The notes: a model not told the origin generated them from the sequence alone. 64,000 bases of DNA from an uncultured Pseudomonadota bacterium (GCA_963847705.1 CAWKBC010000040.1:1-64000), one strand, 5' to 3'; counted from the stretch's first letter, positions 32,174 to 62,931 are shown. Made by a program: numbers and translations.

Positions 32174-32257
32174 GCGGTCGTGGCGGAACTGGTAGACGCG
32201 CCAGATTCAGGTTCTGGTGATGGTAACATTGTGGGAGTTCGACTCTCCCCGACCGCA
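32174..32257 (+). tRNA. tRNA-Leu(CAG)
   Basis: Acceptor GCGGTCG/CGACCGC, D-arm TGGTAGAC, anticodon arm CCAGA-TTCAGGT-TCTGG, long variable arm, T-loop GTTCGAC; CCA not encoded. Confidence 0.95.
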
Positions 32258-32279
32258 CAAATTCAAGTACTTAGGCGAT

Positions 32280-33512
32280 TTATGCGGCGTCCCAATCGGG
32301 TGCGGAACTCTTGCGGAAGTTCCGCAAAGAAGTCATCACCAGATCGGTTCTTGCGTCGATGACGGCCTCCGGTTTCGCGTAGTGATCCGCCGTCACCGCG
32401 AACGACTCGTGACCGAGCGCCCGCGCCACGGCATCCCCGGTGACGCCCGCTTGAACGGCGAGCGTCGCGTGCGTCCCACGAAGGCCGTGTGGGCTCACGA
32501 TCGGAGTTTTGGCCAAACGGCAGATACGCTGCACGGCCGAACGGAGCCACCATCGGTCGGCATCGGGCCCGAACAGACGCTCGGTCGGTTCCTTGCCCGC
32601 CGCCAGCCGTGCCAGCAGCGGCTGAAGCACCGCCGGGAGCCGGAGGCGTCGAATGCCCGCCCTCGTCTTGGCGCGAGGAATCACCAAGACACGCCCGTCG
32701 TCGTCGAGGTCGCGGACCAAACGGTCCGTCACCTCTGAGGCCCTCATCCCCATGAGCAGCGCCGTCGCTGCTGCCAGCGCGCCCACGTCGTCGGTCGCCA
32801 GCTCCAACGCTGTCGCCAACCATCGGCGGGCATCGTCCACCCGGTCGAGCTGTTCCTTACCTCTGGAGCGCTCCCCGAGTATCTCGATGCCATCGAAGGG
32901 CTCTGGGACCTTCGTCCAGCGCTGCTTCAGGCACCAGCGCATGAACGTCTTCGCTTCGTGAAGGACGTTGATCCGGGTATCGACGGCCGGCGGCTTCCCC
33001 GTGCGGGTCGGTCGCGAGACGTACCCGTTCCAGATTCTGACGGCGTCGTCGCAGGTGAGTGCCACGACGTAGTGGGTCTGGTCCTTGAACAGCGACCGAA
33101 GCCGCTCCAGCGTGCTGCAGATCGAGAGGGGCTTGTTCCCCTTCTCGGTCAGGTGCTTTTCGTAGGTCATCAGAGCCCCGTCGATGCTGATACCGATTTC
33201 CCTCTCAGCTTTACGGCGGAGTCTGTTGATGGCGCTTCTTGCTTCTATCTCGGTCGGAAACATCGTGTTGGTCGACTTGCCGGTGACGCGGTCGACGACC
33301 TTCACCCTCCAACCTTTTCTCTCTTGATATGGTCCATGAATGCGACGCATCGGTTTCCCTTTCGACAGGGTTGATGCGTCGCCGGATTCGTCGGCTATTC
33401 CGTTCTCAGAGAGCTGGCCTTCACCCTGATCCTGCGCGGATTCGCTGTCAACCTCGGCCAGCAGCGCCCGCAGCGCAGCGATCTGATCGGGGGTGAGCGC
33501 CGTCGTCGGCAT
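32280..33512 (-). CDS. Tyrosine recombinase / integrase
   Basis: GMRASE (R), AKT (K), HGLRGT (HxxR), LGHES, HYA (Y); start uncertain (33512 or 33351). Confidence 0.92.
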   Translation of the reverse strand: MPTTALTPDQIAALRALLAEVDSESAQDQGEGQLSENGIADESGDASTLSKGKPMRRIHGPYQERKGWRVKVVDRVTGKSTNTMFPTEIEARSAINRLRRKAEREIGISIDGALMTYEKHLTEKGNKPLSICSTLERLRSLFKDQTHYVVALTCDDAVRIWNGYVSRPTRTGKPPAVDTRINVLHEAKTFMRWCLKQRWTKVPEPFDGIEILGERSRGKEQLDRVDDARRWLATALELATDDVGALAAATALLMGMRASEVTDRLVRDLDDDGRVLVIPRAKTRAGIRRLRLPAVLQPLLARLAAGKEPTERLFGPDADRWWLRSAVQRICRLAKTPIVSPHGLRGTHATLAVQAGVTGDAVARALGHESFAVTADHYAKPEAVIDARTDLVMTSLRNFRKSSAPDWDAA

Positions 33513-33570
33513 GGCTAGGCGCACAACCTTCGGACAGGCGCGCGGAGCCTGAGCCGGAGGTCACTGGTGC

Positions 33571-41305: not shown

Positions 41306-42064
41306 TCACTTGGCCTTTTTAGGCGTGGGCGGCTGAGACTTCTGGCGCCAGGAGTCGGCGTCGATGTCGATGACGTGGCAGTGCTGGACGAAGCGGTCGA
41401 CGAGGGCGGCGACGCAGGCGGCACCGGGAAAGACCGTGCCCCACTGCTTGAAGGGCAAATTCGTGGTGATGACGACGGACCTGGTCTCGTGCCTGCGGCT
41501 GACGATGTTGTAGAGGAGATCGGCGGAGCGGCTGTCGCAGGGGAGGTAGCCGAGCTCATCGACAATCAAGAGCTTCGGCGCGAGGTACCTGTGGCGCAGA
41601 GCGCGTTCGAGAGCGGGCAGCGACTCGCGACGAAGGAGATCGGTCAGTAGCGCGGCGAGGCTAGAAAAGCGGACGGAGTGGCCGCGGGTGAGGGCGGCGA
41701 AGCCGAGATTCTGCGCGAGCGTGGTTTTGCCGACGCCGCTCGGCCCGCGCAGGAGCACGTTGTCGCCGCGCTCAAGGAAATCGAGGTTGGTGTGCAGGCT
41801 CTCATAGAGGTTGCGGTCGATGGAGCGGGGATGGTTCCAGTCGAAGCGGTCGAGGGTGGTGAATTTGCCGAGGGTTGCGAGGCGGGTGCGCGCGGCGAGA
41901 TTGCGGCTCTCGCGTTCGCGGCGCTCCATCTCGACCAGCTTCTCGCAGGCCTCGACGGGGCCGATGCGACTGTGGGTGGCGTGCTCGAAGAGAGCGCGGA
42001 GCGCGGCCAGCGAGACGCGGAAGCCGAGCTGGCGCAGCTGGGTGGCGATGTCATCGCTTGGCAT
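41306..42064 (-). CDS. istB: IS21 helper ATPase
   Basis: GPSGVGKT, LLIVDELGY, ITTNLPF, DRFVQHC. Confidence 0.93.
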   Translation of the reverse strand: MPSDDIATQLRQLGFRVSLAALRALFEHATHSRIGPVEACEKLVEMERRERESRNLAARTRLATLGKFTTLDRFDWNHPRSIDRNLYESLHTNLDFLERGDNVLLRGPSGVGKTTLAQNLGFAALTRGHSVRFSSLAALLTDLLRRESLPALERALRHRYLAPKLLIVDELGYLPCDSRSADLLYNIVSRRHETRSVVITTNLPFKQWGTVFPGAACVAALVDRFVQHCHVIDIDADSWRQKSQPPTPKKAK

Positions 42065-43526
42065 CGTAGCCCCCGAGATCGTGCGGGATGACGTCGCGGT
42101 CGGGGATGCCATCCCCGAGCGGGATATCGATGGGGACGGGATGCTCGGCGGCGCGGCGGTGCTTCTCGCACAGCACGCCCACTTCGCCGGGGTCGTGCGT
42201 GCCGCGCTCGACGGTTTCCGCGACGGCCTTCCCGAAGATGTCGGCGCCGTAAAGGTCGAGCAGCTTGCCGGTCTGGGCCACCATGCTTCCGATGTTGCGG
42301 CCCGCCTCGACCCAGCGCTCGATGAGGACATCGACTTGTGGCGCGACGGTGCGCAGTCGATCGCGGCCGGCGGAGGGCGCGGCGCCGCGCTTGCGACGCA
42401 GGATCTCGGCACGGTGATCGGGATGCTCGATCTTCTGGCGGTGGCCCCACGAGCGGGGGTGCTGGGCGACGACGGCGGCGCCGTCGAGCAGACGGACGGA
42501 GCGATCGTCGGCGACGATGGTGAGGGTGCGCTCGACGTGGTCCGGCGGCACCGAATAGACGTTGGTGTCGAAGCGGGCGAAGGCGGTCTTGTCGACGAGC
42601 ACGGGCTGTACCACGTCAGTGGCGGGCATCGGGTCGGGCAGCGGGAGCAAGCGCTGCTTCTCCTCGACCAGGCAGTCGGCGATCGTGCGTTGCGGGAAAT
42701 TGGGATGTCGCTGCTGGTGCGCGATGGTGTCGATGAAGGCGAGCAGCTCCCGGTTGCCGTGCTCGACGTCGTAGATGTCGCGGCCAGCGAGGAAGCGCTC
42801 CCGAAGGAAGCGAATCTTTCGCTCCACGCGTCCCTTCTCGTTCCCCCGGTACGGGGCGCACAGCCGCAGCTGGACGTGCATGGCGCTGCCGAGGTCGAGG
42901 AGCAAGGGATGGAAGCGGGCCGCGTCGCCGTGCCGTTCGAGCACGACAATCTTCGGATTGTCGAAGAGCCACTGGCGGGTCGAGCCGCCGAAGTAGGTCG
43001 ACGCACGCGCCAGCGAGCGCAAGAGCGAGTGCACGGTGGTGTCGAAGCAGAATTCACCCCACATGGCGCGCGACCAGGCCAGCACCATCACGAAGAGCCA
43101 CAGTGAGCGGCTGCCCCCGCCCGGCACCGGAATCTGCCCGACGTGAGCCCAGTCGATCTGAGCCTGCTCGCCGATGAGGGGATCGAGACGCAGGAAGGCC
43201 TCGCGCTTGGGCGTGGGACGCGCCGTCATGACGAAGCGGCGCAGGGTACGGGCGCTGCCGCGAAAGCCGCGCTCCTTGAGCATGTCGAGCAGCCGCGTCG
43301 ATCGCAGGCGCGGATACTTGAGCAGCGTCTCATTGATGAAAGCGACGTACGGCACGACGAGGAGAGATCTCCGCTCGACCCGATCGGTTCGGGGCCGTAG
43401 CAGCCCCAGAACGCGGCGGACGACATCCTCGTGGACGCCGAGTTGGGCGGCGATGGTGCCCACCTTCCAGTGCTCGGCGTGATGAAGGCGCGCGATCTCC
43501 GCCTCGACTTCGGCGGCGACGGTCAT
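42051..43526 (-). CDS. istA: IS21 transposase
   Basis: GEQAQIDW, LFDNPK, EKGRVER DDE motifs. Confidence 0.94.
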   Translation of the reverse strand: MTVAAEVEAEIARLHHAEHWKVGTIAAQLGVHEDVVRRVLGLLRPRTDRVERRSLLVVPYVAFINETLLKYPRLRSTRLLDMLKERGFRGSARTLRRFVMTARPTPKREAFLRLDPLIGEQAQIDWAHVGQIPVPGGGSRSLWLFVMVLAWSRAMWGEFCFDTTVHSLLRSLARASTYFGGSTRQWLFDNPKIVVLERHGDAARFHPLLLDLGSAMHVQLRLCAPYRGNEKGRVERKIRFLRERFLAGRDIYDVEHGNRELLAFIDTIAHQQRHPNFPQRTIADCLVEEKQRLLPLPDPMPATDVVQPVLVDKTAFARFDTNVYSVPPDHVERTLTIVADDRSVRLLDGAAVVAQHPRSWGHRQKIEHPDHRAEILRRKRGAAPSAGRDRLRTVAPQVDVLIERWVEAGRNIGSMVAQTGKLLDLYGADIFGKAVAETVERGTHDPGEVGVLCEKHRRAAEHPVPIDIPLGDGIPDRDVIPHDLGGYDAKR

Positions 43527-45479: not shown

Positions 45480-45598
45480 GCCATGGTCCGTGCGCGAAGA
45501 TGCCCCCGGAGTTGAACTCCTCGCCGCGCTCTTTGGGCCAGCTTGAGAAGCCGCTGGCGAACGGACGCGACCAGATCGCGCGGGGGCCGTGCCTTCAC
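45480..45598 (-). pseudogene. Truncated AbiEii-type toxin remnant
   Basis: Overlaps the antitoxin stop; MKARPPRDLVASVRQRLLKLA, then (shifted) RGEEFN, then lost. Confidence 0.6.
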
Positions 45599-46209
45599 GA
45601 GACGACCGCTTCCAGATAGGGCCTCATCACGTTCACTACGCGCACGACGGACGCGGCCTCGGTGAGGTCGTCCATGGGCCGGCGCGAACGACGGTGCTCG
45701 CGGAGGGCCTCTAGCGCCACGTCGAGCCCGATCTTGTTGCGGTACTTGAAGCAGTCGGCGACGGTGCGGGCGACGGTCGTGACCCTGACGGGTACGCCCT
45801 CGATGACGTGAACCTCGACACCGTGCTTGAGCGCGGCTCCGGAGAACCGGACGATCCGGAGCGGAAGATCATGAACGGTCGGCTTGCGATCCTTGACCCC
45901 GATGGCAAGCCAGGTCTCGAAGGGAGCCTGGGTCCCGAGGCCGTGAAACTGCAGGGCCGACAGAAGGCAGACCACACCATTCGGTACGCGGAGGGCAGCG
46001 GCAGCGAGGCCGTGGTGCTCCGTGGCCTGGAATCCCGCCGCCGGGTAGAGGCCTCGCCCCAGCCGTTCCAGCTTGCCAGCCTCGACCAGTCTGCGGATGG
46101 CGGGACGCGACGTCCCTTTGGCTTCCAGGTCACGGCTACGCATGAGCCTGCGCCGGCGGCTCAGGTCAGCTTGATGCCTTGGGCCAGGCTGTGTACGTTT
46201 CGTCGGCAT
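45595..46209 (-). CDS. Type IV TA antitoxin, AbiEi family
   Basis: LERLGRGLY, GVVCLLSALQFHGL.TQ, ARTVADCFKYRNKIGLDVALEAL. Confidence 0.9.
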   Translation of the reverse strand: MPTKRTQPGPRHQADLSRRRRLMRSRDLEAKGTSRPAIRRLVEAGKLERLGRGLYPAAGFQATEHHGLAAAALRVPNGVVCLLSALQFHGLGTQAPFETWLAIGVKDRKPTVHDLPLRIVRFSGAALKHGVEVHVIEGVPVRVTTVARTVADCFKYRNKIGLDVALEALREHRRSRRPMDDLTEAASVVRVVNVMRPYLEAVVS

Positions 46210-49514: not shown

Positions 49515-49826
49515 ATGCCGTTTCGTAGGAAGGGAAAAGCGGGTCTCACGGCCCGCCTCGACGTGCGCGTCTCGCCCGCCGAGAAGAAGCAGCTTGGGGG
49601 CATCGCTCGCGAAGCGGGCCTCCCCGTCGCCGAGCTGGTGCGCCTGCGCGCGCTCGGGCGGCCGGTCGTGTCCCGCACGGACGCCACGACCATCCGGGAG
49701 CTACGGCGCCTCGGGGGCCTGCTCAAGATGGTCCACGTCGAGAGCGGCGGCGCCTACCGCCAGCAGACGGCCGAGCTGCTCACGATGCTGCGCGCCGCGG
49801 TCGGCAAGCTGGCGGGCGGGCAGTAG
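49515..49826 (+). CDS. Relaxosome accessory protein MobB / TraJ-like (RHH)
   Basis: LDVRVSPAEK..L...A..AGL.VAELVR..ALGR, IRELRRLGGLLK. Confidence 0.85.
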   Translation: MPFRRKGKAGLTARLDVRVSPAEKKQLGGIAREAGLPVAELVRLRALGRPVVSRTDATTIRELRRLGGLLKMVHVESGGAYRQQTAELLTMLRAAVGKLAGGQ

Positions 49827-49839
49827 GGAGGCAGGGACG

Positions 49840-51861
49840 ATGATCGTCAAGAAGGTCCCCACGTCCAAGCACGCCCCGGCCAAGAGCAAGGCCCACAACG
49901 TGCGCGCCCTCGCCGACTACATCGCCGGCCCCAAGGCCGGCGGCGCCGGTGAGAAGGTGGAGCACCGCGGGGCTCTGAACCTCCTCAACCTCGATCACGA
50001 GGGACAGGTGCAGGAGATGATCGACCTCGCCGAGACGGCCAAGCGCAGCCCGCAGCCGGTGCAGCACTGGATCATGAGCTGGCGGGAGGGGGAGCAGCCG
50101 ACGTCGGCCCAGGCCGATCAGGCGGCCAGGATGTTCCTGGACGAGATGGGCTTGGCCGGCCACCAGGCGCTCTATGGATTGCACCGCGACACGGAGAACT
50201 GGCACCTCCACCTGGCCGTCAACCGCGTCCACCCCGAGACGGAGAAGCTCGTCACCGTCAACAACGGCTTCGACCACGAGGTCGCCCACCGGGCGATCGC
50301 TCGCATCGAGCACGCGCAGGGGTGGCAGAGGGAGGAGCGCGGCCTGTTCCAGATGCGGGAGGACGGGCGCGTTGAGCGCGCACGTCCGCGCGACGAGCAA
50401 GAACGCAAGCCATCCGTTCGAGCCCGCGATTTCGAAGAGCGGGTGGGCGCCCGGAGCGCCGAGCGTGTGGCCATCGAGGACGGAGCGCCCGCCATCCGCG
50501 CGGCCGGGAGTTGGCGGGAAATGCACGAGGCCCTGGCCGAGAAGGGGATGCGCCTCGAGAGGAAGGGCTCAGGCGCGATTCTGTGGATCGGCGATCAACC
50601 GGTGAAGGCGAGCAGCGCCGGCCGCGACTGTTCCATGTCGGCGCTCCAGAAGCGTCTGGGCGAGTTTCAACCTGCGAGGGATACCGCGCGCGTGATGACA
50701 CGCACCCGAGCCCCCGAGCCGATCATGCCCAGCGCCCCCGGCTGGAAGCAGTACACCGACGCACGACGACAGCACTACCTGGAGCGTTCCCGCAGACGGG
50801 AACGGCAGATGGAGCAGCAGAGGAAGGGTCGGGAACGCATGGCCGCTCGTCATCGGCAAGAGCGAGCAGACATCTTTCGCGGATCCTGGAAGGGACGGGG
50901 CGCTCTCCTCAACGCGACCAGGAATCTGCTCGCCGGTCGTCAAGCGCAGGAAAAGGCCGAGCAGCTTGATCGCCAAAGGCTGGAGCGCGGGGTACCGGAC
51001 AAGGACCGGGGACGGTTCCCGAGCTACGAAGAATGGCTTCACCAAAGGGATCACGGGCTCGCGCAGGGGTGGCGACATCGAGAACGACGGCCGCCTGGCA
51101 TAGAGGGGCCGACGTTCGTGCGGCCCGCGCCCCAAGATATCCGCGCGTTCGCCCCGGTCGTCGAAGGTTGGCACGTCCACTATCGTCGCGTCGGCGAGCG
51201 CGGCTCCCCTGCCTTCACAGACCGGGGTAAGGAGATCGACATCTACGACAGCAACCGACGGGAAAGCGTCCTCGCCGCCCTCCAGTTGAGCGCCCAGAAG
51301 TGGGGCGCGTTCACCATTCGCGGAAACGAGCGGTTCCGGAGCATGTGCGTCGAGTTGGCAGCAGAGCACGGCTTCAAGATCGCGAACCCGGAGCTCCAGC
51401 AAGCCATCGTCGCCGAGCGGAAACGGATTCGGACACGTGGAAGAGAGCGCACGACGGCGCCTGTGCGCCGCGCGGTCGAGATCGTGGCGACTCGGACGCC
51501 AGCGGACGTCTATCGGCGTCACCTGGCGGATGTCACCCGGGAGCGCCCGGGTCAGCCCGTCGACCCCTCGCGGGTCGATACCGAGATCGCTGTTCGCATG
51601 CGTCTTGCGGGCCATCGCCGGGGCGAAATCGAGCGAGCGATCAGAGAGGCCGTACCGGCAGATCGGCGCGGCGAGACGCGCGATTGGGATGTTTACGCGA
51701 AGCGCACGGTGGCAGTCGCCTTCGGTATTCCTGGGGACCGCCTATCTGAGCACCTCAGACGGCAGCACGACCGATTCCGCCGCCTCCAAGAGCGCCATCG
51801 CGAAGAGCCCGAACGCCTACCGCCTGGCGATCCATTCTCCCGCTCTGGACCCGAACGCTAA
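49840..51861 (+). CDS. MOBP relaxase (TraI/MobA) with LPD7-like and RepB C-terminal-like domains
   Basis: LADYI (catalytic Tyr), HWIMSW, HRDTENWHLHLAVNRVHP; FTDRGKEI..AALQL..QKWG. Confidence 0.92.
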   Translation: MIVKKVPTSKHAPAKSKAHNVRALADYIAGPKAGGAGEKVEHRGALNLLNLDHEGQVQEMIDLAETAKRSPQPVQHWIMSWREGEQPTSAQADQAARMFLDEMGLAGHQALYGLHRDTENWHLHLAVNRVHPETEKLVTVNNGFDHEVAHRAIARIEHAQGWQREERGLFQMREDGRVERARPRDEQERKPSVRARDFEERVGARSAERVAIEDGAPAIRAAGSWREMHEALAEKGMRLERKGSGAILWIGDQPVKASSAGRDCSMSALQKRLGEFQPARDTARVMTRTRAPEPIMPSAPGWKQYTDARRQHYLERSRRRERQMEQQRKGRERMAARHRQERADIFRGSWKGRGALLNATRNLLAGRQAQEKAEQLDRQRLERGVPDKDRGRFPSYEEWLHQRDHGLAQGWRHRERRPPGIEGPTFVRPAPQDIRAFAPVVEGWHVHYRRVGERGSPAFTDRGKEIDIYDSNRRESVLAALQLSAQKWGAFTIRGNERFRSMCVELAAEHGFKIANPELQQAIVAERKRIRTRGRERTTAPVRRAVEIVATRTPADVYRRHLADVTRERPGQPVDPSRVDTEIAVRMRLAGHRRGEIERAIREAVPADRRGETRDWDVYAKRTVAVAFGIPGDRLSEHLRRQHDRFRRLQERHREEPERLPPGDPFSRSGPER

Positions 51862-52450
51862 CGGAGTGCCGCGGGCCATGGCGGGTCTAGATCGCACCGG
51901 CGCGCGGCCGGGTCTCAGATTCGAAAGCCGATGGTTCCGTCCTGCCTGACGCGCAGCTCTTGGCGTACTCGCTTCGCACAGTGCTTGAGTCCGACGACTC
52001 AGGAGCTGCACCTCGACTACCAATCTACCGGGACGCGGCTTGGCGGCAGTCTGGATGCGCCTATTTGGCGCGGTTCAGGTCGAGGCTCCGGTAACCGGCT
52101 CCCATCCGTGATCTAGGGGGTCGAAATCCGGACACCTCGACCCCGGACCGGCAAGCCGATGCGATAACGCGCCGAGTTATGTTGGCGAGCGACGCATCAG
52201 TGTTGCTTCGACGTCTACAAAGCCGCTGGTCAGACTCGCAGTCCCGCCTTCCAAGAGTGGCACCGGGGATGCAACGGCATGCTAGGGAATAAAGTGCCAC
52301 GAGTTGTCGTTCAAAAACTTGAACCGTCCAGCTGCACCGGATGTACTCTCTGGGGCGTGCAGGATGGGTGTAGGCGATTTTGGAGAGCGTCGCTAGGTTG
52401 CTACCGTGCGTCGTTCGACAGCAGGCGTGAGGCGCCCGAGGAGGGCAAAG

Positions 52451-52648
52451 ATGGCCGAGAAAGCTGACGAGACGAGGCCGCTGCCCCCGACTTCCGGGCA
52501 GAGAGCTACCGACGAGGCGTTTCGCGAACCAACTGTGGAGCGAGTTGTCCTTGGCCGAAGCATCACATACCGCGCAGACGCCGCGATCGCCGCAAGCCGA
52601 GTTGTCGAACGTGTACTGGCCCGAATAGCAGCATCCACGGACGAGTAG
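52451..52648 (+). CDS. Small hypothetical protein (65 aa) upstream of the phosphoesterase
   Basis: RBS GGAGG, ATG 52451, stop 17 bp before the next gene. Confidence 0.55.
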   Translation: MAEKADETRPLPPTSGQRATDEAFREPTVERVVLGRSITYRADAAIAASRVVERVLARIAASTDE

Positions 52649-52665
52649 GCGCTTAGCCCTCGCCC

Positions 52666-55086
52666 GTGAAGATCCTCCATATCTCTGACCTGCACGTAAC
52701 ACCACCGAACAAGAGTCTACGTCAGGTCTGGTCACCCGCGGCAGCGGAGCTCTCGCGGGGAGGCCACGAATCCTTTGATTTCGTGGTCGTAAGCGGTGAC
52801 CTCAGTCAGCAGGCCCAGAAGAGCGAGTACGATGCCCTTCTGAAGTTCTCTCGGGACTACCTGGTGCCACTGGTCTCGAATGAAGTGACCCGTGTTGTCT
52901 TCGTCCCAGGAAATCACGATGTGGACTGGACCGCAGAGTTCGCCGAGCCGGTTCAGATGTCCCATATCAAGGATCGGGCAGACCTAGAGCAACTCGAGAA
53001 GACCTTCAAGGCGGTCAGCAAGTCGCCTCAGGACTGTGGTCACCGCGTTGCGCTCAGCCGGTTCGGACACCTTGAACTTCTCAAGATTGATCCAACTGCC
53101 TACAGGAACCGGTTAACAACGGCCCAGGCGTTCCTAGATGCCTTCTATGATGGCTCATTAACGAAGCCGACAGGTGTGTCAAAGCATTTTGAACTCATGG
53201 CCGATCCCATCGAAGGGAAGGATTGGTCCGCTCACGTGTTTCCAAGTTCCAATGTGGCGTTTTTCGGACTTAATTCCTGCCATCTAAACGATACGTACTG
53301 GCACGGCGCGCACTTTAACCCGGAAGCGCTTGCGAACGTGACATCGCGTGTTGCCTCGTTGAAACGTCTCCACAAAGACATGCAATTCGTTGCGGTTTGG
53401 CATCATGGATTTGTCTCCGAAAGGGGAAGGCCTGACCGCCTGACGCTGGAAGACATCGGCGACCTCCTCAATGCAGGCTTCGTCGCGGGCTTCCATGGGC
53501 ATACCCACAAAGCTGACCAGCAGATCGTCGACCTGCTCCGGACTCGAATTGCAATCATTTCCACCGGGTCTCTTGGCGCCGGTGCGAGCGAACGACCCGG
53601 AGCGGTCGGCAATCAGTTTTCTATTGTGACTTTAAAGCCGGGCAGAATTCGCTCTGACGTCTTCTCACTGGATGACCAAAACAAACAGTACTCTGGCGGA
53701 CATCACAGATCGTTCTCGATTTCGCCGCGCGACCGGATTCGCATTTCTGAAGTTGCTGTCGCCACTCACGAACGAACTTGGACGGTCCGCGAAGATGGAA
53801 TTTCCCAGGTGTCGGTCAAGCTGACCACTGTGCGAACGGATGACCGCGTTGTTCTCGCTCAATTGTGTCCTCCTTTCTGCAATACGCTTTTCGACAAGCA
53901 AGCCGTCGTCGACCGGGGATATCTACCGGTTAGTGAGACCGTAATGGCCGATGGAAAGATTCGTTACACAGTATCGCCGCCGGCGACATCCTACGACGAT
54001 CTCTCCTGGCAGTACTCCGTTTCGAACGCGATCGCCCTGACCCAAGCAGACCTGTCTATTGTGCCCAATCGGCCGTCGCTGTTTCCGAATCTCCCGCAGC
54101 GATTCGAGACTCGAGGACACACCGTAAAGATGGAGACCGAACGCCTCATCTTGAGGATCGTCCTTCCGAGTCCCTATTCAGCCGTCGAGAAGGTTGGAGT
54201 GCAGGTCGAGAAGCAGATTACCGTCGCTGACGAAATCCATTGGGAGCGGGTGCCGTCCGAAGAACGCCGATGTACGATTGAAACCACGAAAGAGGTTCTA
54301 GAGTTGGCAGTTAGCTACCCGGTCGTCGGCTATCGATACAGCATCATCTACATACCGCCGACCGTGGGTGAGCCGCTGAGGCGCGCTGTATTGCAATTAG
54401 GTGGCCGTCTGATTGAGCAGTGCCGGTTGCGGGTTCGAAGCGACGCTAACCGTTCCCTTTCGTCAGCTCTTCAATCTGCAGTTCGAGACGTCTTCAGCGG
54501 AGTTTTCTCGGACGTTGTCCCAGAGAATGGGGCCGCCGAGCTCTTGCTTGGGGAGGAGGACGGCTGGATTGCTCACGTCTGGGACCACAGAGATCGTACG
54601 CTATATCCGATCTTTGGGCAGTTCAGCCCGCGCGCGTGGGGAAGAACCTTCCGTGCAGGGAATGGCGTCGCCGGGCACGCGTTTCGATTTGCGAAGGCCG
54701 CCTTTTGGTATCTCGGCGACGAAGGAATCGGCTCGTGCGTTTACGAACAGGCCGTCCGAACGAACTGTGAGTGGATTTTAGCAATTCCGATCCAAGTCAA
54801 GCCCCAAGGGGCGGCGATCGCCGTGGTGTCGTTCTCCGGTACTGCCAGCGCGCACCCTCTCAATCGACGTCTGTTTAGCCTCGTCCAACATCTGTCGGCA
54901 AAGAGCGATGGAGAGCCTGGCCTGTCAAGCAAAGATCAGGACGACCTCGATTCTCTGGCAACCCAACTGAATGTTTCATTCTGGCAGCTGCTCGAAAAGG
55001 GCGCCTGGCTGCAGCCTGCCGATCGTCGATATGCGCGTGAAATCGTGTCTGCCTTTGCGCCTACGTTATCTAATCCAAGTAATTGA
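52666..55086 (+). CDS. Calcineurin-like metallophosphoesterase fused to a beta-rich domain and a GAF-like domain
   Basis: HISDLH, SGDL, PGNHD, WHH, HGHTH; C-terminal GNGVAGHAF...WILAIPI...IAVVSF. Confidence 0.85.
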   Translation: MKILHISDLHVTPPNKSLRQVWSPAAAELSRGGHESFDFVVVSGDLSQQAQKSEYDALLKFSRDYLVPLVSNEVTRVVFVPGNHDVDWTAEFAEPVQMSHIKDRADLEQLEKTFKAVSKSPQDCGHRVALSRFGHLELLKIDPTAYRNRLTTAQAFLDAFYDGSLTKPTGVSKHFELMADPIEGKDWSAHVFPSSNVAFFGLNSCHLNDTYWHGAHFNPEALANVTSRVASLKRLHKDMQFVAVWHHGFVSERGRPDRLTLEDIGDLLNAGFVAGFHGHTHKADQQIVDLLRTRIAIISTGSLGAGASERPGAVGNQFSIVTLKPGRIRSDVFSLDDQNKQYSGGHHRSFSISPRDRIRISEVAVATHERTWTVREDGISQVSVKLTTVRTDDRVVLAQLCPPFCNTLFDKQAVVDRGYLPVSETVMADGKIRYTVSPPATSYDDLSWQYSVSNAIALTQADLSIVPNRPSLFPNLPQRFETRGHTVKMETERLILRIVLPSPYSAVEKVGVQVEKQITVADEIHWERVPSEERRCTIETTKEVLELAVSYPVVGYRYSIIYIPPTVGEPLRRAVLQLGGRLIEQCRLRVRSDANRSLSSALQSAVRDVFSGVFSDVVPENGAAELLLGEEDGWIAHVWDHRDRTLYPIFGQFSPRAWGRTFRAGNGVAGHAFRFAKAAFWYLGDEGIGSCVYEQAVRTNCEWILAIPIQVKPQGAAIAVVSFSGTASAHPLNRRLFSLVQHLSAKSDGEPGLSSKDQDDLDSLATQLNVSFWQLLEKGAWLQPADRRYAREIVSAFAPTLSNPSN

Positions 55087-55189: not shown

Positions 55190-56365
55190 TCACCTCGCAC
55201 GGAGTCGCCTTTCCGAGGTCTCCACCACCTCGAACAATCCGACGGCTTCCCAGGCGCGGTTACGCTTTCCTGCGTTGACTCGCTTGATCACGCCGGCTTC
55301 CTCAAGCTGAATCATGGCCAGACGGGCCGCCTGGTTCGAGACACTGGCGATTTTCTCCGCGGCTCCGACGTCGAGGATTGGGTGTCCTGGTAAGGCCTCG
55401 ATGAGCTTGTCGGCGGCTGAACCCGAGCGGGGCCGACCGACCGCTTCTCGCCACTGCGTGCGTAATCGGTCGATCGCCGACGCCAGTCTGCCCGCCTCGT
55501 CAGCCGCCGTTCGGACTGCCGCCGAAAATACTCCGCACCACTCAGCCACTTTTCCCGCCCGGAAGGCCACCAGTCCCCGAACATAGGCCTTCGCGTTAGC
55601 CCCGAGCACCAGGCTCACCGGCGGGACGAACCCAGGAGTCAGACCTCGGCGGCGCAGGACGGCGTGGATGAGGCAGCGACCCACACGACCGTTTCCGTCC
55701 GCGAACGGATGGATCGTCTCGAACTGGGCGTGGACGATCGCCGCCTGGATGACCGCGGGCAGGTCGTCTCGGGACGCGAAGATGCAGAGATCGGCCACCA
55801 AGCTAGGGACTCGATCCTCTGGCGGCGGGATGAAGTCTGCGTGTTCCGGCGTACTCCCGCCTCCGATCCAGCCCTGGGCCGTCCGAAGCTTTCCGCCAAG
55901 GTGCCGATCGGGCGTGGCCTCGAGCAGTATCCGGTGGACGTTTAGGACGTCGCGAGTCGCGAGCGGTTTGCTTCGACTTCCGAGCGCGACAGCTGCTTCC
56001 ATCGCCGCGACGTTTCCCAAAACAGAGTCAGCCGTCAGGTCCTTGTGGGTCCGGCCAAAGTCGGCCCGGGCGAGGCGCCGGTGTGAGATCTCGAGACCCT
56101 CGATCCGTGACGAGGCAACCGATTCGGCGCGAAGAAGCTGCCGCCCAAGCGCTTCCCAAGAGACTCCGCCGGGTGGTTGAGCTCCGAGCTGCCGCACAGC
56201 CGTCGTCGCGGCCTCGGCCGCTTCGGCGACATCCGCCGGAATCGCCAGGTCTAGCTCGCCGATTTCGTCAGGGACGAAGGCCTCGTAGTAGAAGCCGCTT
56301 CGCGACTTTCGACCTCCGAACGCCTCCAGGTCCGCCCGCCAGTGGCGCTTCACGAGCGTCGGCAT
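55190..56365 (-). CDS. Fic family protein
   Basis: Canonical HPFADGNGRVGR; ESVASSRIEG inhibitory motif. Confidence 0.93.
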   Translation of the reverse strand: MPTLVKRHWRADLEAFGGRKSRSGFYYEAFVPDEIGELDLAIPADVAEAAEAATTAVRQLGAQPPGGVSWEALGRQLLRAESVASSRIEGLEISHRRLARADFGRTHKDLTADSVLGNVAAMEAAVALGSRSKPLATRDVLNVHRILLEATPDRHLGGKLRTAQGWIGGGSTPEHADFIPPPEDRVPSLVADLCIFASRDDLPAVIQAAIVHAQFETIHPFADGNGRVGRCLIHAVLRRRGLTPGFVPPVSLVLGANAKAYVRGLVAFRAGKVAEWCGVFSAAVRTAADEAGRLASAIDRLRTQWREAVGRPRSGSAADKLIEALPGHPILDVGAAEKIASVSNQAARLAMIQLEEAGVIKRVNAGKRNRAWEAVGLFEVVETSERRLRAR

Positions 56366-58647: not shown

Positions 58648-60867
58648 GTGAATGACGCTCTGTCAGCCCTGCTGGACACGTTTGAGCATCAACTCTTGGG
58701 CCTCACGCGACGTCAGTTCCTGATCGACGCATTCCAGGCCGACCTCGACAAGGTGACGCGGGGTGAGCCATTCAGGTACCGAAACGAGGTCCTGTGGCGG
58801 ATGTTCCTCGACACGCGCGACGCCCACGTCGTCAGCCTGGCGAGCTGGGCACGCTCCGTCTACCAGCCGGACGGCCTGATCGACCGACTGCGGGCCTATC
58901 ACGCTCATGATCTGCCGACCAAGCGGCCACCGGGACCGCTCGACGACGATCCCTCTTGGCGCGCGGGCCGAGATCGTGAACACGCTGACGCGTTGGCCCG
59001 GCTGTTTCCGGGAATGCCGGGGGCGTACCCGGGCGACCAGCAGTTCGACCAACTCCGCGACGCGTTCGTCGCGCGGATGAAACCCGTCGTCGAGGACGCC
59101 TCCAACCGCGTCCGACCGTTCGACCGGGACCCGCAGGTAGGCAGCGTGAAGATGCTTGATTTCGGGGAACTCCGGGACGCCATCAGGTACGCCGAGCAGC
59201 TGATGAACGACCTCAGCATGGTCGGATGCCAGCGCAAGGACGACTATCGAGAGACGAACAACCCGGACGCTGCCGACGTGGTCCCTGACCTGGTCGACGC
59301 TATCGTGCTAGGAGCCCGCGAAGAGATCGAGCGGGCGCGAGGTGAGCTGGATAGGATCGCGTTCTACGACGAGCTCCGCCACCGGCACGCCACTCACACG
59401 AAGAGACCGACGCGGTTCTTCAACGACAAGATATTCGCCGAGTCGGACGACGGCAGCCCGACGCAGTCCGAGACGAGATACGTCGGGTTCTTTCCGGCCC
59501 TCCCGCTCGACAAGAACCTCGAGCTTGGCGAGTGGGTTGTCGGCACTCCACCGGCCGCCACGCCTTGGGCGTCGGATAGGTTTCGCGAGCTCTCGGAATC
59601 CTTGATCCGCTCGTTCAAGAAGCGAGATTTCGAGGGGGGCGCGATGCTCTGGCACCGGGACCGTGGCTTCGACGGGTCGAAGCCGACTAACGAGGAGATC
59701 GGCGCGATCCGCGCCGCCGTGACCTTCGCGGTGCTCGACACAAACGACCGTCTCCGGTTGACCGAGCCTGACCACGCGAACCAAGCCCGCGAGATGGCGA
59801 CGACGGAGAACGCGGACCTGTTCATACAGCCGATCACCGACGACAACGGCGGGATCACTCATCGGCGGGGCGGCCTCCTGAGGGGGATGCTGGTGGGCAA
59901 CATGAAGATCGGCGGCGCCCCCCCACCGCTTGCGGACGCGGTTGAGAAGATCGACAGGCCTGTCCCGGTGTCGGCCTTCCTCGCGCGCGCGGTCTACGAC
60001 ACCGTCCGCACCGAGAACCGGCGGGGACGGGCCATCGCGACGGCGGCGGAGTGGCACCGAGTGGCCCTGTCGAATCCCGAGGCCGTCACGATGGGCCAGC
60101 GGCTCATTGTCCTGAAGACCGGCTTCGAGGCGCTGTTCCGCACGAGCAACTCCCGCGTTGCTGCGCGGAAGCTGCGGTCTCTGTTCGAGAGCAGGACGCG
60201 GGCGCGGAAACACCTCGACCTCCTTCCCTGGGATGGGCTGCTTTGGTCTCCGAGGGAAAAGAGGTACCTCTGGCGCTGGTGCTGGATCGATGGGGAGCGA
60301 CAGATTGAGGCGTTCAGCGAGATCGAGCACTGGTTCATGGCACTCGCCGACGCGAGGAACGCCGTCATTCACGAGGGGCGGCTGACGACCTGGACCTACG
60401 AAGCGCCGCCCGAGCGCCCGCTGTCGGTCTATGCCGGCTGGCTTCTCTGGGTCGGCGAGCGCGTGCTGCGAGAGGCGATCAAAGCGAAGATCGGCCCGGA
60501 GGTGCTCCTGTGCGGGGCTATCGCCCGGCGAGCGTGGGCTGAGAAACAGTTCGGTGATCAGGCCCGCCAGCTGATGGCTGCGGCGAAGGCGCGTGCGAAA
60601 GCGCGCGCCGCCGCGGGGACGGAACCGGCGAGGCCCGCCGAGGCGCACGCGCCCCGCTCCCTGTCGAAGATTTTGGCCTTTCTAGGCGTCCCGGCGGCCA
60701 ATTTGGTGGTGGTCGAGGTCCTTACGCAACTGGTAGCTGGCTACACACACGGGGCGAGCGCGCGCCGCGGCCGGGTCAAGATGTCGATCACCGAGTCCGA
60801 GTTCCTCGCACTCCGCGCCGCCGGCGCCGAAGACAAGCTGCACCGGTTTTGGTACCCATGCCCGTAG
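58648..60867 (+). CDS. HEPN-domain fusion protein
   Basis: LKTGFEAL...ARNAVIHEG (RX4H); separate helical N-terminal domain. Confidence 0.7.
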   Translation: MNDALSALLDTFEHQLLGLTRRQFLIDAFQADLDKVTRGEPFRYRNEVLWRMFLDTRDAHVVSLASWARSVYQPDGLIDRLRAYHAHDLPTKRPPGPLDDDPSWRAGRDREHADALARLFPGMPGAYPGDQQFDQLRDAFVARMKPVVEDASNRVRPFDRDPQVGSVKMLDFGELRDAIRYAEQLMNDLSMVGCQRKDDYRETNNPDAADVVPDLVDAIVLGAREEIERARGELDRIAFYDELRHRHATHTKRPTRFFNDKIFAESDDGSPTQSETRYVGFFPALPLDKNLELGEWVVGTPPAATPWASDRFRELSESLIRSFKKRDFEGGAMLWHRDRGFDGSKPTNEEIGAIRAAVTFAVLDTNDRLRLTEPDHANQAREMATTENADLFIQPITDDNGGITHRRGGLLRGMLVGNMKIGGAPPPLADAVEKIDRPVPVSAFLARAVYDTVRTENRRGRAIATAAEWHRVALSNPEAVTMGQRLIVLKTGFEALFRTSNSRVAARKLRSLFESRTRARKHLDLLPWDGLLWSPREKRYLWRWCWIDGERQIEAFSEIEHWFMALADARNAVIHEGRLTTWTYEAPPERPLSVYAGWLLWVGERVLREAIKAKIGPEVLLCGAIARRAWAEKQFGDQARQLMAAAKARAKARAAAGTEPARPAEAHAPRSLSKILAFLGVPAANLVVVEVLTQLVAGYTHGASARRGRVKMSITESEFLALRAAGAEDKLHRFWYPCP

Positions 60868-60962: not shown

Positions 60963-61940
60963 CTAGGCCCTGGACGGAAGCCGCGGTCCGCGGCCGAGCA
61001 CCGCGACGATCCGATCCGTCAGTCGTTTGGTCAGCTCCTCCAGCTTGCCGTCCTCCCACGTGAGGAGGTTCATGTGCTGCACGTCGAAGTGGACGCGGGT
61101 TTCGCTCTCCGGCCGCACCTGATCCTGGTTGCACAGCATAAAGACAGGGAGGTTGAGGCCGAAGGCAACCCCCGCCTCGTAGTACACGCCGCCCCGGTTT
61201 CCCCAAAAATCGGCCACCACGAACCGGCTCTCTCGGATCTTGGCGATGATCTCGTCCGTCACGCCGCCGATGAATTCCTCGCGATCGATCCGGCTTGGTC
61301 GGAACCCGGCCCTTTCGATCCCCGCCGCGATCGCGTTGAAAAGGCGGTCCGAGTCCTTGAACCACATCGCGATGAAGCCCTGGTCGCCAGCGGCTCTGGG
61401 GCGCGCCTCGAGCAGCTCCCAGCCCTTGTCGGTGAGGCGGACCTTGCCGTTGCCGATCTCGCTGATCAGCCCGTCTCGCACGAGGGGCTGGAAGACGAAG
61501 TTCCACTCGTCCCAGTTGCCATCGTCGACGGAGTGGCAGTAGGCGACCGGATAGTCGCGAGACGGGTCGTAGTCCACCAGCGCCCCGTGTGGCCTCCGCG
61601 ATTTTCTCGACTCGTAAGCGAGCCAGTCCAGGAGCGCATCTCGCTTCTCGGTGAAGGTGCGCTCGCGGATCTCCCCCCTCATCAGCGCCTTGAACAGGTC
61701 TTCATTGACGAGCACGGGAGGCACCTGGCGGACCGGAGCTGTTCGAGTGAGGGCGCTCAAGAGATCGCGATCGCCAGGAAACGCGTTCATTCCCCTGCCC
61801 GCGTACCAGACGCCGGTCGTGACGTTGAACGAGCCACACCGGCGGCACTCGACCGGGTAGATGTACGAATCTGACCGACGGCCAAAATCGGTCGTAACCG
61901 GCTGCCTGCAGAGGGGGCACGTTTCGCTCATGGGCGCCAT
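60963..61940 (-). CDS. Zn-ribbon protein with C-terminal nucleoside 2-deoxyribosyltransferase/TIR-like domain
   Basis: CPLC..CRRCG; GFIAMWF, IIAKIRESRFVVADF..NRGGVYYEAG, HFD. Confidence 0.8.
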   Translation of the reverse strand: MAPMSETCPLCRQPVTTDFGRRSDSYIYPVECRRCGSFNVTTGVWYAGRGMNAFPGDRDLLSALTRTAPVRQVPPVLVNEDLFKALMRGEIRERTFTEKRDALLDWLAYESRKSRRPHGALVDYDPSRDYPVAYCHSVDDGNWDEWNFVFQPLVRDGLISEIGNGKVRLTDKGWELLEARPRAAGDQGFIAMWFKDSDRLFNAIAAGIERAGFRPSRIDREEFIGGVTDEIIAKIRESRFVVADFWGNRGGVYYEAGVAFGLNLPVFMLCNQDQVRPESETRVHFDVQHMNLLTWEDGKLEELTKRLTDRIVAVLGRGPRLPSRA

Positions 61941-62127: not shown

Positions 62128-62931
62128 TTAGCCCGAACTCACAAGGATCTTCAGCAAGTCGGCCACGTTCCCGGCCGTTGACGACGGCAACACGTTCTCT
62201 CGCCGCATAGCCTTCTCTGCCTCTACGTCTCCCTGCGTCCAGTGGCTGACGTCACGCAGCAGGTTGTAGGCATCGCCGTCGCGGTCACAGCCGTACTTCG
62301 CGTACACGTCGCTCACGGCGCACTTCTTCGCCATCGCGATGTCCCGAAACAGACTGTCTCCGACGTACACGGTCTCTTCGGCGGCTGAGCCGTTGTGCGC
62401 GATCACGAATTGAAGTGCCTTCGGATCGGGCTTCCGCTCTTGGATTGTGACCACATCGCGTGCGGTTGATACGGGCATTCGATTCGGGAACCGCTCGTTC
62501 GCCGTGGCATAGACTCGCTTCACCAAGGTGGTATCAATGCCAAGCGCTTCGCACCGAGCCGCAGCAAGCGCTGAGGGAGCATCGGTATGAAGGACGACGG
62601 TGTCGCCGTTCCTCTGGAGAGCAGCCCAAAGATCCTTAATTCCAGAGAAGAGGTGATGTCCGGCCCTTCGAGAGGCGCTAAGACCGTCGGCGAGCCCATG
62701 CGCCTCCTGTTCACCGAGCCCGGGAAACAGCGCCTTCAGATCGTCGGAGGAGAACGGAAACTCTGACGTGCCGACGCTCTGATGAAAGCTTCGAATAGTC
62801 CTTCGGACGTTCAGATCGTCTAGACCGGTGACGCGTCCGAGGGTGCTCAAGAACTCAGAAAAGGACGAACTCCACATCTTCAGCCAGTCGAAGATGGTGT
62901 CGTCGATATCGAAGACGATCAGCCGCGACAT
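62128..62931 (-). CDS. HAD family hydrolase
   Basis: FDIDDTIFDW, HTD, RKPDP, YVGDSLFRDI. Confidence 0.88.
   Translation of the reverse strand: MSRLIVFDIDDTIFDWLKMWSSSFSEFLSTLGRVTGLDDLNVRRTIRSFHQSVGTSEFPFSSDDLKALFPGLGEQEAHGLADGLSASRRAGHHLFSGIKDLWAALQRNGDTVVLHTDAPSALAAARCEALGIDTTLVKRVYATANERFPNRMPVSTARDVVTIQERKPDPKALQFVIAHNGSAAEETVYVGDSLFRDIAMAKKCAVSDVYAKYGCDRDGDAYNLLRDVSHWTQGDVEAEKAMRRENVLPSSTAGNVADLLKILVSSG

Follow-up and report, generated by a model that had tools for sequence, protein, structure and literature searches.

A two-gene unit joining a small protein to a metallophosphoesterase-beta-sandwich-GAF protein, a candidate conflict effector with a modular regulatory core

The closest described counterparts of the locus considered here are conflict systems that use a calcineurin-like metallophosphoesterase (MPE) as an effector. 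In the available part of PMC13092281, DS-8 and DS-9 have an MPE effector related to SMPDL3A, whose catalytic activity is required for defence, with a NACHT in DS-8 and a HAD partner in DS-9. The variable-effector conflict systems of multicellular prokaryotes, as far as the accessible parts of PMC7159879 and PMC8195603 describe them, combine a constant core with swappable calcineurin-type phosphoesterase, TIR, MinD/ParA-like and EAD effectors, and use GAF as only an occasional nucleotide-binding domain. Here we describe a two-component unit that appears to be undescribed and whose regulatory core is modular, found in a stretch of 64,000 nucleotides of an uncultured Pseudomonadota bacterium (GCA_963847705.1 CAWKBC010000040.1:1-64000; "the window" hereafter means this whole stretch). 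The unit comprises an 806-aa protein (P0001), in which an MPE domain is followed by a beta-sandwich and a GAF domain, and a 65-aa protein (P0002, the peptide) encoded just upstream and predicted to bind the GAF domain. The constant part of the unit is the peptide together with the beta-sandwich-GAF module, and the MPE is one of several domains attached to it. The pair and its domains are as follows:

52438..52444, + strand: Shine-Dalgarno-like GAGGAGG before the small open reading frame (ORF), from the sequence
52451..52648, + strand: small ORF for the 65-aa protein, ATG start, also picked by a codon-model gene caller
52544..52639, + strand: core of the small protein, V32-T63, predicted interface (in the complex prediction, chain 1 is contacted by positions 7-38 of the 40-aa core)
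52666..55086, + strand: gene for the 806-aa MPE/beta-sandwich/GAF protein, GTG start (homology, AF2, fold searches)
52666..53718, + strand: calcineurin-like MPE domain, residues 1-351 (PF00149; Rv0805/GpdQ/SMPDL3 fold; conserved metal ligands)
53755..54360, + strand: beta-sandwich, residues ~364-565, aminopeptidase-N N-terminal/ribophorin-like fold (AF2 and fold searches; no Pfam family)
54382..55071, + strand: GAF domain, residues ~573-802, with the predicted peptide-binding face on helices 598-613 and 755-778 (fold match; GAF_2 in relatives; complex prediction)

The two genes are separated by 17 nt on the + strand, and both are low-GC cargo of a 33-kb element inserted at a tRNA-Leu gene. The large gene has a GC content of 55.9% (61.7% at third codon positions), against 70.1% in window positions 1-32000, 69.1% in the genome and 63.8% in the element. 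All five motifs of the calcineurin-like superfamily (D-x-H, GD, GNH, H and H-x-H) are found in P0001, its metal ligands D8, H10, D45, N83, H84, H246, H247, H279 and H281 are kept in 119-120 of 120 aligned homologues, and PF00149 scores it at 35.8 bits (cut-off 21.5). In the AF2 model built with the homologue alignment (pLDDT 92.7, pTM 0.90), residues 1-351 adopt the calcineurin-type beta-alpha-beta-alpha-beta sandwich fold and match Rv0805 (Z 20.5, rmsd 4.0, 248 aligned), the MPE matches to Rv0805, GpdQ and SMPDL3 spanning Z 18.6-20.5. For residues 326-567 the best match is to an oligosaccharyltransferase subunit (Z 11.6, rmsd 3.0, 163 aligned), with LTA4H and aminopeptidase N among the Foldseek matches of the beta-sandwich, and residues 584-785 have the GAF fold and match that of Lcd1 (5w10; Z 11.0, rmsd 3.5, 144 aligned). 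The GAF_2 profile matches 15 of 40 family members, P0001 itself not being one of them, and a single-sequence fold of the module reached a pLDDT of only 34.7. A Pfam scan of P0001 found no NTPase family, a PDB sequence search gave no match below E 0.01, and no library family spans the whole protein, the best matches (PDC-S60, DS-9A and DS-8) reaching at most its first 115 residues. The 65-aa protein has no match in Pfam, PADLOC, NCBIfam or PHROGs; it consists of a low-complexity N-terminal tail, a beta-strand (V32-V33-L34) and an amphipathic helix. The original prediction had proposed an AT-rich 806-aa protein with five intact metal motifs, a beta-rich and a GAF-like domain in place of the usual NACHT/STAND ATPase, and a 65-aa ORF 17 bp upstream, in an architecture outside named systems. 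The composition, model, fold searches, alignment, Pfam scan and gene calls bear it out on each of these points, and no named family matches. A literature search likewise returned no paper on this architecture, with subscription journals and supplements outside its scope, and the source data of PMC7159879 and PMC8195603 may list it. A sigma-70 promoter search gave no match, and sequencing runs held only scattered short pieces of the locus, including one 215-nt piece from an RNA library that is no evidence of expression.

Homology searches with the large protein recovered 408 proteins among 7994 scored candidates; the 120 homologues listed cover 83-100% of the query, those with names being myxobacterial, and the homologues P0004 and P0005 are 53-75% identical to it. 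In two paralogues, at L013:10001-12232 and L266:485-2743, the metal ligands are altered (D8N; L013 also has H281S). Neither has a peptide gene beside it, a PARP gene follows three genes later, and the two are possible decoys.

The best library matches of the MPE are the anti-phage DS-9A and DS-8 models together with PDC-S60. P0001 falls outside both systems, scoring 38.5 bits against an NCBIfam cut-off of 790 for DS-8, with no NTPase in the Pfam scan, and 40.8 bits against 420 for DS-9, with no conserved HAD neighbour (the HAD gene of the window lies 7 kb away on the opposite strand). Where those systems have NACHT or HAD components, the pair in the window has a beta-sandwich-GAF module and a small partner. 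In a scan of 42 appendages of its nearest module-less MPE relatives, with no control, 18 had a Pfam match, 15 of these to NACHT/STAND/ORC-CDC6/Roc types. The class III phosphodiesterases CpdA, Rv0805 and GpdQ share the fold and metal ligands (Z 19.7-20.5), from which P0001 differs by an identity of 16-17%, two extra domains and a patchy distribution. YydB works with an ABC-ATPase partner. It is the top Foldseek match through the MPE (PDB 9a6c_B; E 8.5e-12, TM 0.45 by target), whereas no such partner is conserved beside the large gene. CapP is another GAF protein in immunity, of different architecture as presented in the available text of PMC13228613. As side observations, the nearest module-less relatives (L014, L015, L017, L018, L087, L090 and others) form a large group of ~490-aa MPEs of YydB-like size with a 150-aa C-terminal domain, and a closely related MPE is a stand-alone gene at a contig edge (L347:50-1033, G860), with no module or peptide seen there.

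At 41 of 59 loci the large gene is preceded, within 330 nt, by a same-strand ORF of about 46-93 aa, and GGAG-type sites are found upstream of many of these. The 41 ORFs were chosen with hand-made motifs and share the pattern V-[VA]-L, four or five residues, hydrophobic-x-hydrophobic-[DN] and an amphipathic helix, with low-complexity tails on either side. A leave-clade-out hidden Markov model (HMM) ranked the chosen ORF first among the local frames at 38 of the 41 loci (10.9 expected), so that the small ORF, on whose conservation the original prediction had staked its proposal, is indeed a conserved companion, and the gene pair is a recurrent one in myxobacteria. Within four clades (20 sequences, 120 codons) the variable sites number 22, 8 and 76 at the first, second and third codon positions, and 60 codons vary only synonymously against 21 that vary non-synonymously, a substitution pattern indicating that the small ORFs evolve under purifying selection. 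None of the 80 small proteins recovered with the peptide profile has a Pfam family; the peptides, roughly 50-90 aa long, form a family described by no library searched.

The peptide core (residues 26-65) modelled with full-length P0001 gave a complex score of 0.74, the best of three controls reaching 0.00. Of 157 solved complexes 116 attain the score mark, as do 2 of 215 mismatched pairs, a rough guide here since author-built alignments were used. The complex runs share at least 90% of contacts, with a partner pLDDT of at least 74. The predicted contacts involve GAF helices 595-612 and 758-779, segments 671-692, 707-714, 743-745 and 797-801, and, outside the GAF, beta-sandwich residues 377 and 379; no listed contact falls on the MPE. 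The prediction supports a likely peptide-GAF binding, without demonstrating it, and combined with the co-occurrence described next it makes the physical link between the small and the large protein, which the original prediction had implied in suggesting that the small ORF may be an inhibitor or trigger, a likely one. The predicted placement of the peptide on the GAF rather than on the enzyme, and a constant unit of peptide plus beta-sandwich-GAF, go beyond that proposal. In type II toxin-antitoxin systems a small gene lies upstream of a large enzyme gene and the two products bind directly. The gene order (small gene first at the 41 loci, the genes being separated in at least three genomes) and the co-occurrence are similar here, and direct binding is predicted; in contrast to those systems, the peptide has no recognisable DNA-binding domain, is predicted on a regulatory domain instead of the active site and can lie in trans. 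The catalytic fold of PDE6 is unrelated to the MPE. By analogy only, PDE6 and its gamma subunit, as set out in the accessible portion of PMC6392808, pair a GAF-containing phosphodiesterase with a ~10-kDa, largely unstructured GAF-binding partner; the gamma subunit also blocks the catalytic site, a contact not predicted for the peptide.

In one order, 15 of 17 genomes with the module have the peptide (E<=1e-5) and none of the 56 others does; in a second order the figures are 12 of 12 and 0 of 135, which brings the totals to 27 of 29 and 0 of 191. Most positives had contributed to the profile, the exceptions being G403, G929, G931, G933 and G813. Three of these exceptions (G403, G931 and G933) have the peptide gene behind an SbcC-like gene, at least 16 kb from the large gene or on another contig. 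That it stays conserved so far away suits a protein acting in trans better than a leader peptide, and a cis role was rejected on this ground. A precursor of a ribosomally synthesized and post-translationally modified peptide, for which there is a distant fold match to MslH (Z 12.0), was also rejected: conservation lies in the middle of the peptide, its C-terminus is variable and MPE-less forms have the peptide. Weak peptide matches in the module-less G953, G917 and G822 (E 5e-5 to 7e-4, frames of 257-360 aa) were counted as chance. Separately, five genomes have a second, stand-alone copy of the small gene (L338:6878-7057, L339:6958-7155, L340:7161-7394, L343:2506-2703 and L344:1849-2007), which in four of them comes just after an inositol monophosphatase-like gene, an HNH-like gene often separating the two (by eye).

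The module profile, searched against 1.84 billion representatives, gave 480 matches at E<=0.001 and 169 at E<=1e-30, and 29 of the best 150, chosen for unusual layouts, were scanned for domains as proteins without genomic context. Seventeen of these start with the module: ten end in pentapeptide repeats that come after a hydrophobic stretch (a membrane helix judged by eye), one ends in a TIR and one in an MPE, and five have no Pfam match in the tail. Other layouts among the best 150 are MPE-module-EAD1, MPE-module-TIR, ParA-like-module and FAD-oxidoreductase (DAO)-module. A word-index search with the module alignment found only 4 proteins, an ESM Atlas search yielded only sub-0.9 GAF leads, and searches of viral contigs, plasmids and viral folds returned no module carrier; a metagenome scan gave 3 family loci of 80. 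As a by-eye observation, the C-terminal 110-140 aa of P0252 and P0259 are PilZ-like, with no Pfam match at 1e-3.

Genomic context is available for two forms in which the module is followed by a TIR. The G167 form, with the module and a C-terminal TIR and lacking the MPE, has a 60-aa ORF of the family pattern in front of it and, behind it, genes for a PDC-M50A-like protein and for a TIR-SLOG protein similar to ThcB4/ThcA of Thoeris type III. G1074 (L281:100-16207) has the same module-TIR arrangement with a peptide and a frame break in the module gene; its surroundings, judged by eye, hold NACHT/FGE-sulfatase genes and a reverse-transcriptase-like gene. The two peptides differ at 1/3/11 sites at codon positions 1/2/3, and for that of G1074 the in-register alignment to a family member is matched by 3 of 1000 shuffles. 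Since the MPE-less TIR form keeps a similar peptide, the peptide and the module make up the constant unit, on which effectors can be exchanged. NTP-dependent ternary conflict systems likewise vary their effectors around a constant component; here the variants are MPE, TIR, EAD1, ParA-like, DAO and pentapeptide fusions, several of them recurring from the variable-effector systems. The cores of the latter, however, are MoxR, vWA, GTPase or STAND proteins, none of which is conserved beside this module; as against the MoxR-vWA and GTPase cores of ternary systems, only the peptide is conserved across lineages. The result is a compact two-gene unit whose regulatory module, not named before, bears many effectors. 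A further gene at the G1074 locus, noted by eye, encodes an 1828-aa propeller-kinase-TIR-like protein, and the locus resembles a conflict locus linked to a diversity-generating retroelement.

We tentatively read the pair, at somewhat less than an even chance, as a peptide-restrained defence or toxin-antitoxin-like conflict effector, in which the inhibition, trigger, oligomerisation, substrate and defence role are all putative. The small protein would bind the GAF of the constant module and hold the attached effector, here the MPE, inactive, its helix packing on the two outer GAF helices and its strand lying at the GAF edge strand, as predicted. The outer-helix face is the one commonly used for GAF dimerisation, and the peptide would therefore block module-module assembly. 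Phage shut-off or proteolysis might remove the short, partly disordered peptide, or a ligand or phage protein might displace it, whereupon the module would oligomerise and switch on hydrolysis of a nucleotide phosphodiester by the MPE, leading to dormancy or death of the infected cell. If the peptide does restrain the effector, this would be a new way of gating immune enzymes, with neither an NTPase nor a second-messenger synthase, and a simple system for finding the substrate of defence metallophosphoesterases.

Several observations weigh against this reading. The peptide of the window shows only weak sequence similarity to the family: it ranks first of five local candidates with only 2.8 bits against the family HMM, 319 of 1000 shuffles match as well, and a leave-one-out HMM missed it genome-wide. 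The last two results would suit a situation in which the family pair is real and the 65-aa ORF of the window is degenerate or unrelated, with no action on P0001. We consider this very unlikely, in view of its family-like position and strand, strong ribosome-binding site, coding-like score and first local rank, and of the complex prediction, which passes with the window sequence as the query. The TIR-form peptides pose a similar difficulty, both scoring at background against the profile and that of G167, taken by itself, being non-significant pairwise (117 of 1000 shuffles). The co-occurrence counts are partly circular and the related genomes are not independent, and family signal from the author-built alignments may carry the complex score. 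Ten module fusions lack an evident enzyme. Nine loci without an adjacent peptide correspond to one clade of eight (SH-aLRT 99, quick tree) plus L260, and four of their genomes (G401, G661, G120 and G949) have no peptide genome-wide while their MPE sites are intact. This is contrary to an obligate antitoxin, yet the profile also misses the window's own peptide. The other three genomes among these loci carry a peptide at another paralogue. A GAF groove filled in peptide-less proteins was looked for, and bulky or acidic residues occur there in peptide-bearing ones as well.

The predicted interface, moreover, cannot tell an inhibitor from an activator. The peptide could instead be an obligatory structural or activating subunit of a conflict system, one that completes the helical layer of the GAF and arms the effector. 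The same binding prediction and co-occurrence would hold for such a subunit, as would the large predicted interface of about 130 contacts, the tolerance of intact large genes without a peptide and the extra peptide copies in five genomes. The AF2 model of the large protein alone, folding with high confidence, speaks against such a subunit, and the small-gene-first order and disordered tails resemble those of antitoxins; we judge an activating peptide unlikely.

The distribution and neighbourhoods of the family bear on whether the pair serves in conflict at all. The large gene was found in none of 25 genomes of the same genus, in 1 of 72 of the same family (genomes incomplete) and in 3 of 401 across the phylum, its own included; multidomain and absent from those same-genus genomes, it is unlike a single-domain, broadly retained housekeeping CpdA. 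Searches centred on carriers gave 13/251, 14/147, 18/73, 6/151, 2/154 and 1/121 positive genomes, counts in which a few matches are MPE-only and many genomes incomplete, and some genomes have up to 4 paralogues. The distribution is patchy, even within genera, and the gene is mobile in the host of the window. The window and G167 loci look defence-like. Among 134 neighbours at 38 sampled loci, a defence- or mobile-type Pfam neighbour within three genes (HsdM, Mrr, TIR-SLOG, transposase, PLD or PARP) was seen at about 6 loci, a raw count with no background rate; most of the Pfam-matched neighbours are housekeeping genes, and no neighbour besides the small ORF is common across lineages. Most homologues are also GC-matched to their flanks at sites stable within a genus, and none was found in plasmids or viral contigs, further points that tell against a conflict role. 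The enrichment near defence genes anticipated by the original prediction is hence not shown by this count; to its broader proposal of a defence or conflict role, effector swapping (TIR, EAD1), the defence-type relatives of the MPE and the mobile element lend indirect support, whereas a general association with defence islands is not supported.

These neighbourhoods would suit a non-defence myxobacterial signalling enzyme, namely a GAF-regulated cyclic-nucleotide phosphodiesterase with a small, PDE6-gamma-like regulatory subunit tuning development or motility. Stable inheritance in clades, GC-matched genes and housekeeping neighbours agree with it, as do the closest solved folds (Rv0805 and a cAMP-bound GAF), the membrane-anchored module forms, the two PilZ-like tails judged by eye and the PDE6 precedent in the available part of PMC6392808. 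The patchiness within genera, the TIR and EAD1 fusions, the Thoeris-like neighbours, the NLR-like fusions among near relatives of the MPE and a peptide predicted off the catalytic domain, unlike PDE6-gamma, count against it, and a signalling enzyme is in our estimate doubtful, if a serious possibility. The peptide-restrained effector remains our preferred reading. An extension of it, unlikely as it stands, would make the module an undescribed homotypic signalling adaptor, in which membrane pentapeptide forms sense an outside cue and recruit MPE and TIR forms by GAF-GAF contacts, while the peptides cap that face as a safety catch, the effector firing once the peptide is lost. If true, myxobacteria would possess an immune pathway of receptor, adaptor and effector that needs no NTPase and brings its own peptide inhibitor.

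The host element is a 33-kb integrative mobilisable element running from the tRNA-Leu gene to contig position 65559 (32174-64000 inside the window). Apart from the pair, the following features were recognised on it:

32174..32258, + strand: tRNA-Leu(CAG), integration site; a direct repeat of its 31-bp end (32228-32258) lies past the window, at contig position 65529
32280..33524, - strand: tyrosine integrase (PF00589)
41306-43526: IS21-like pair
45595-46209: AbiEi antitoxin, no partner toxin gene called
49563..51861, + strand: NikA/MobC-like gene and relaxase, directly upstream of the pair (PF21983, PF03432; starts from the gene caller)
55190..56365, - strand: Fic protein (PADLOC SoFic) in convergent orientation to the pair, a neighbour without conservation at homologous loci
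58648-60867, + strand: 739-aa protein with no family match, facing the 325-aa TIR-like protein
60963-61940, - strand: 325-aa protein, zinc-finger-like at its start and TIR-like/nucleoside deoxyribosyltransferase at its C-terminus (library scans)
62128-62931, - strand: HAD hydrolase (PADLOC "Hydrolase", 124 bits), behind the gene for the 393-aa protein
62939-64120, - strand: 393-aa protein with N-terminal hydrophobic segments and a C-terminus GAF-like by eye, extending past the window end

The HAD hydrolase and the 393-aa protein are likely a separate defence cassette on the element, which also encodes a ParA-like protein and a PIN protein. A second integrase-like gene lies directly beyond its right repeat.

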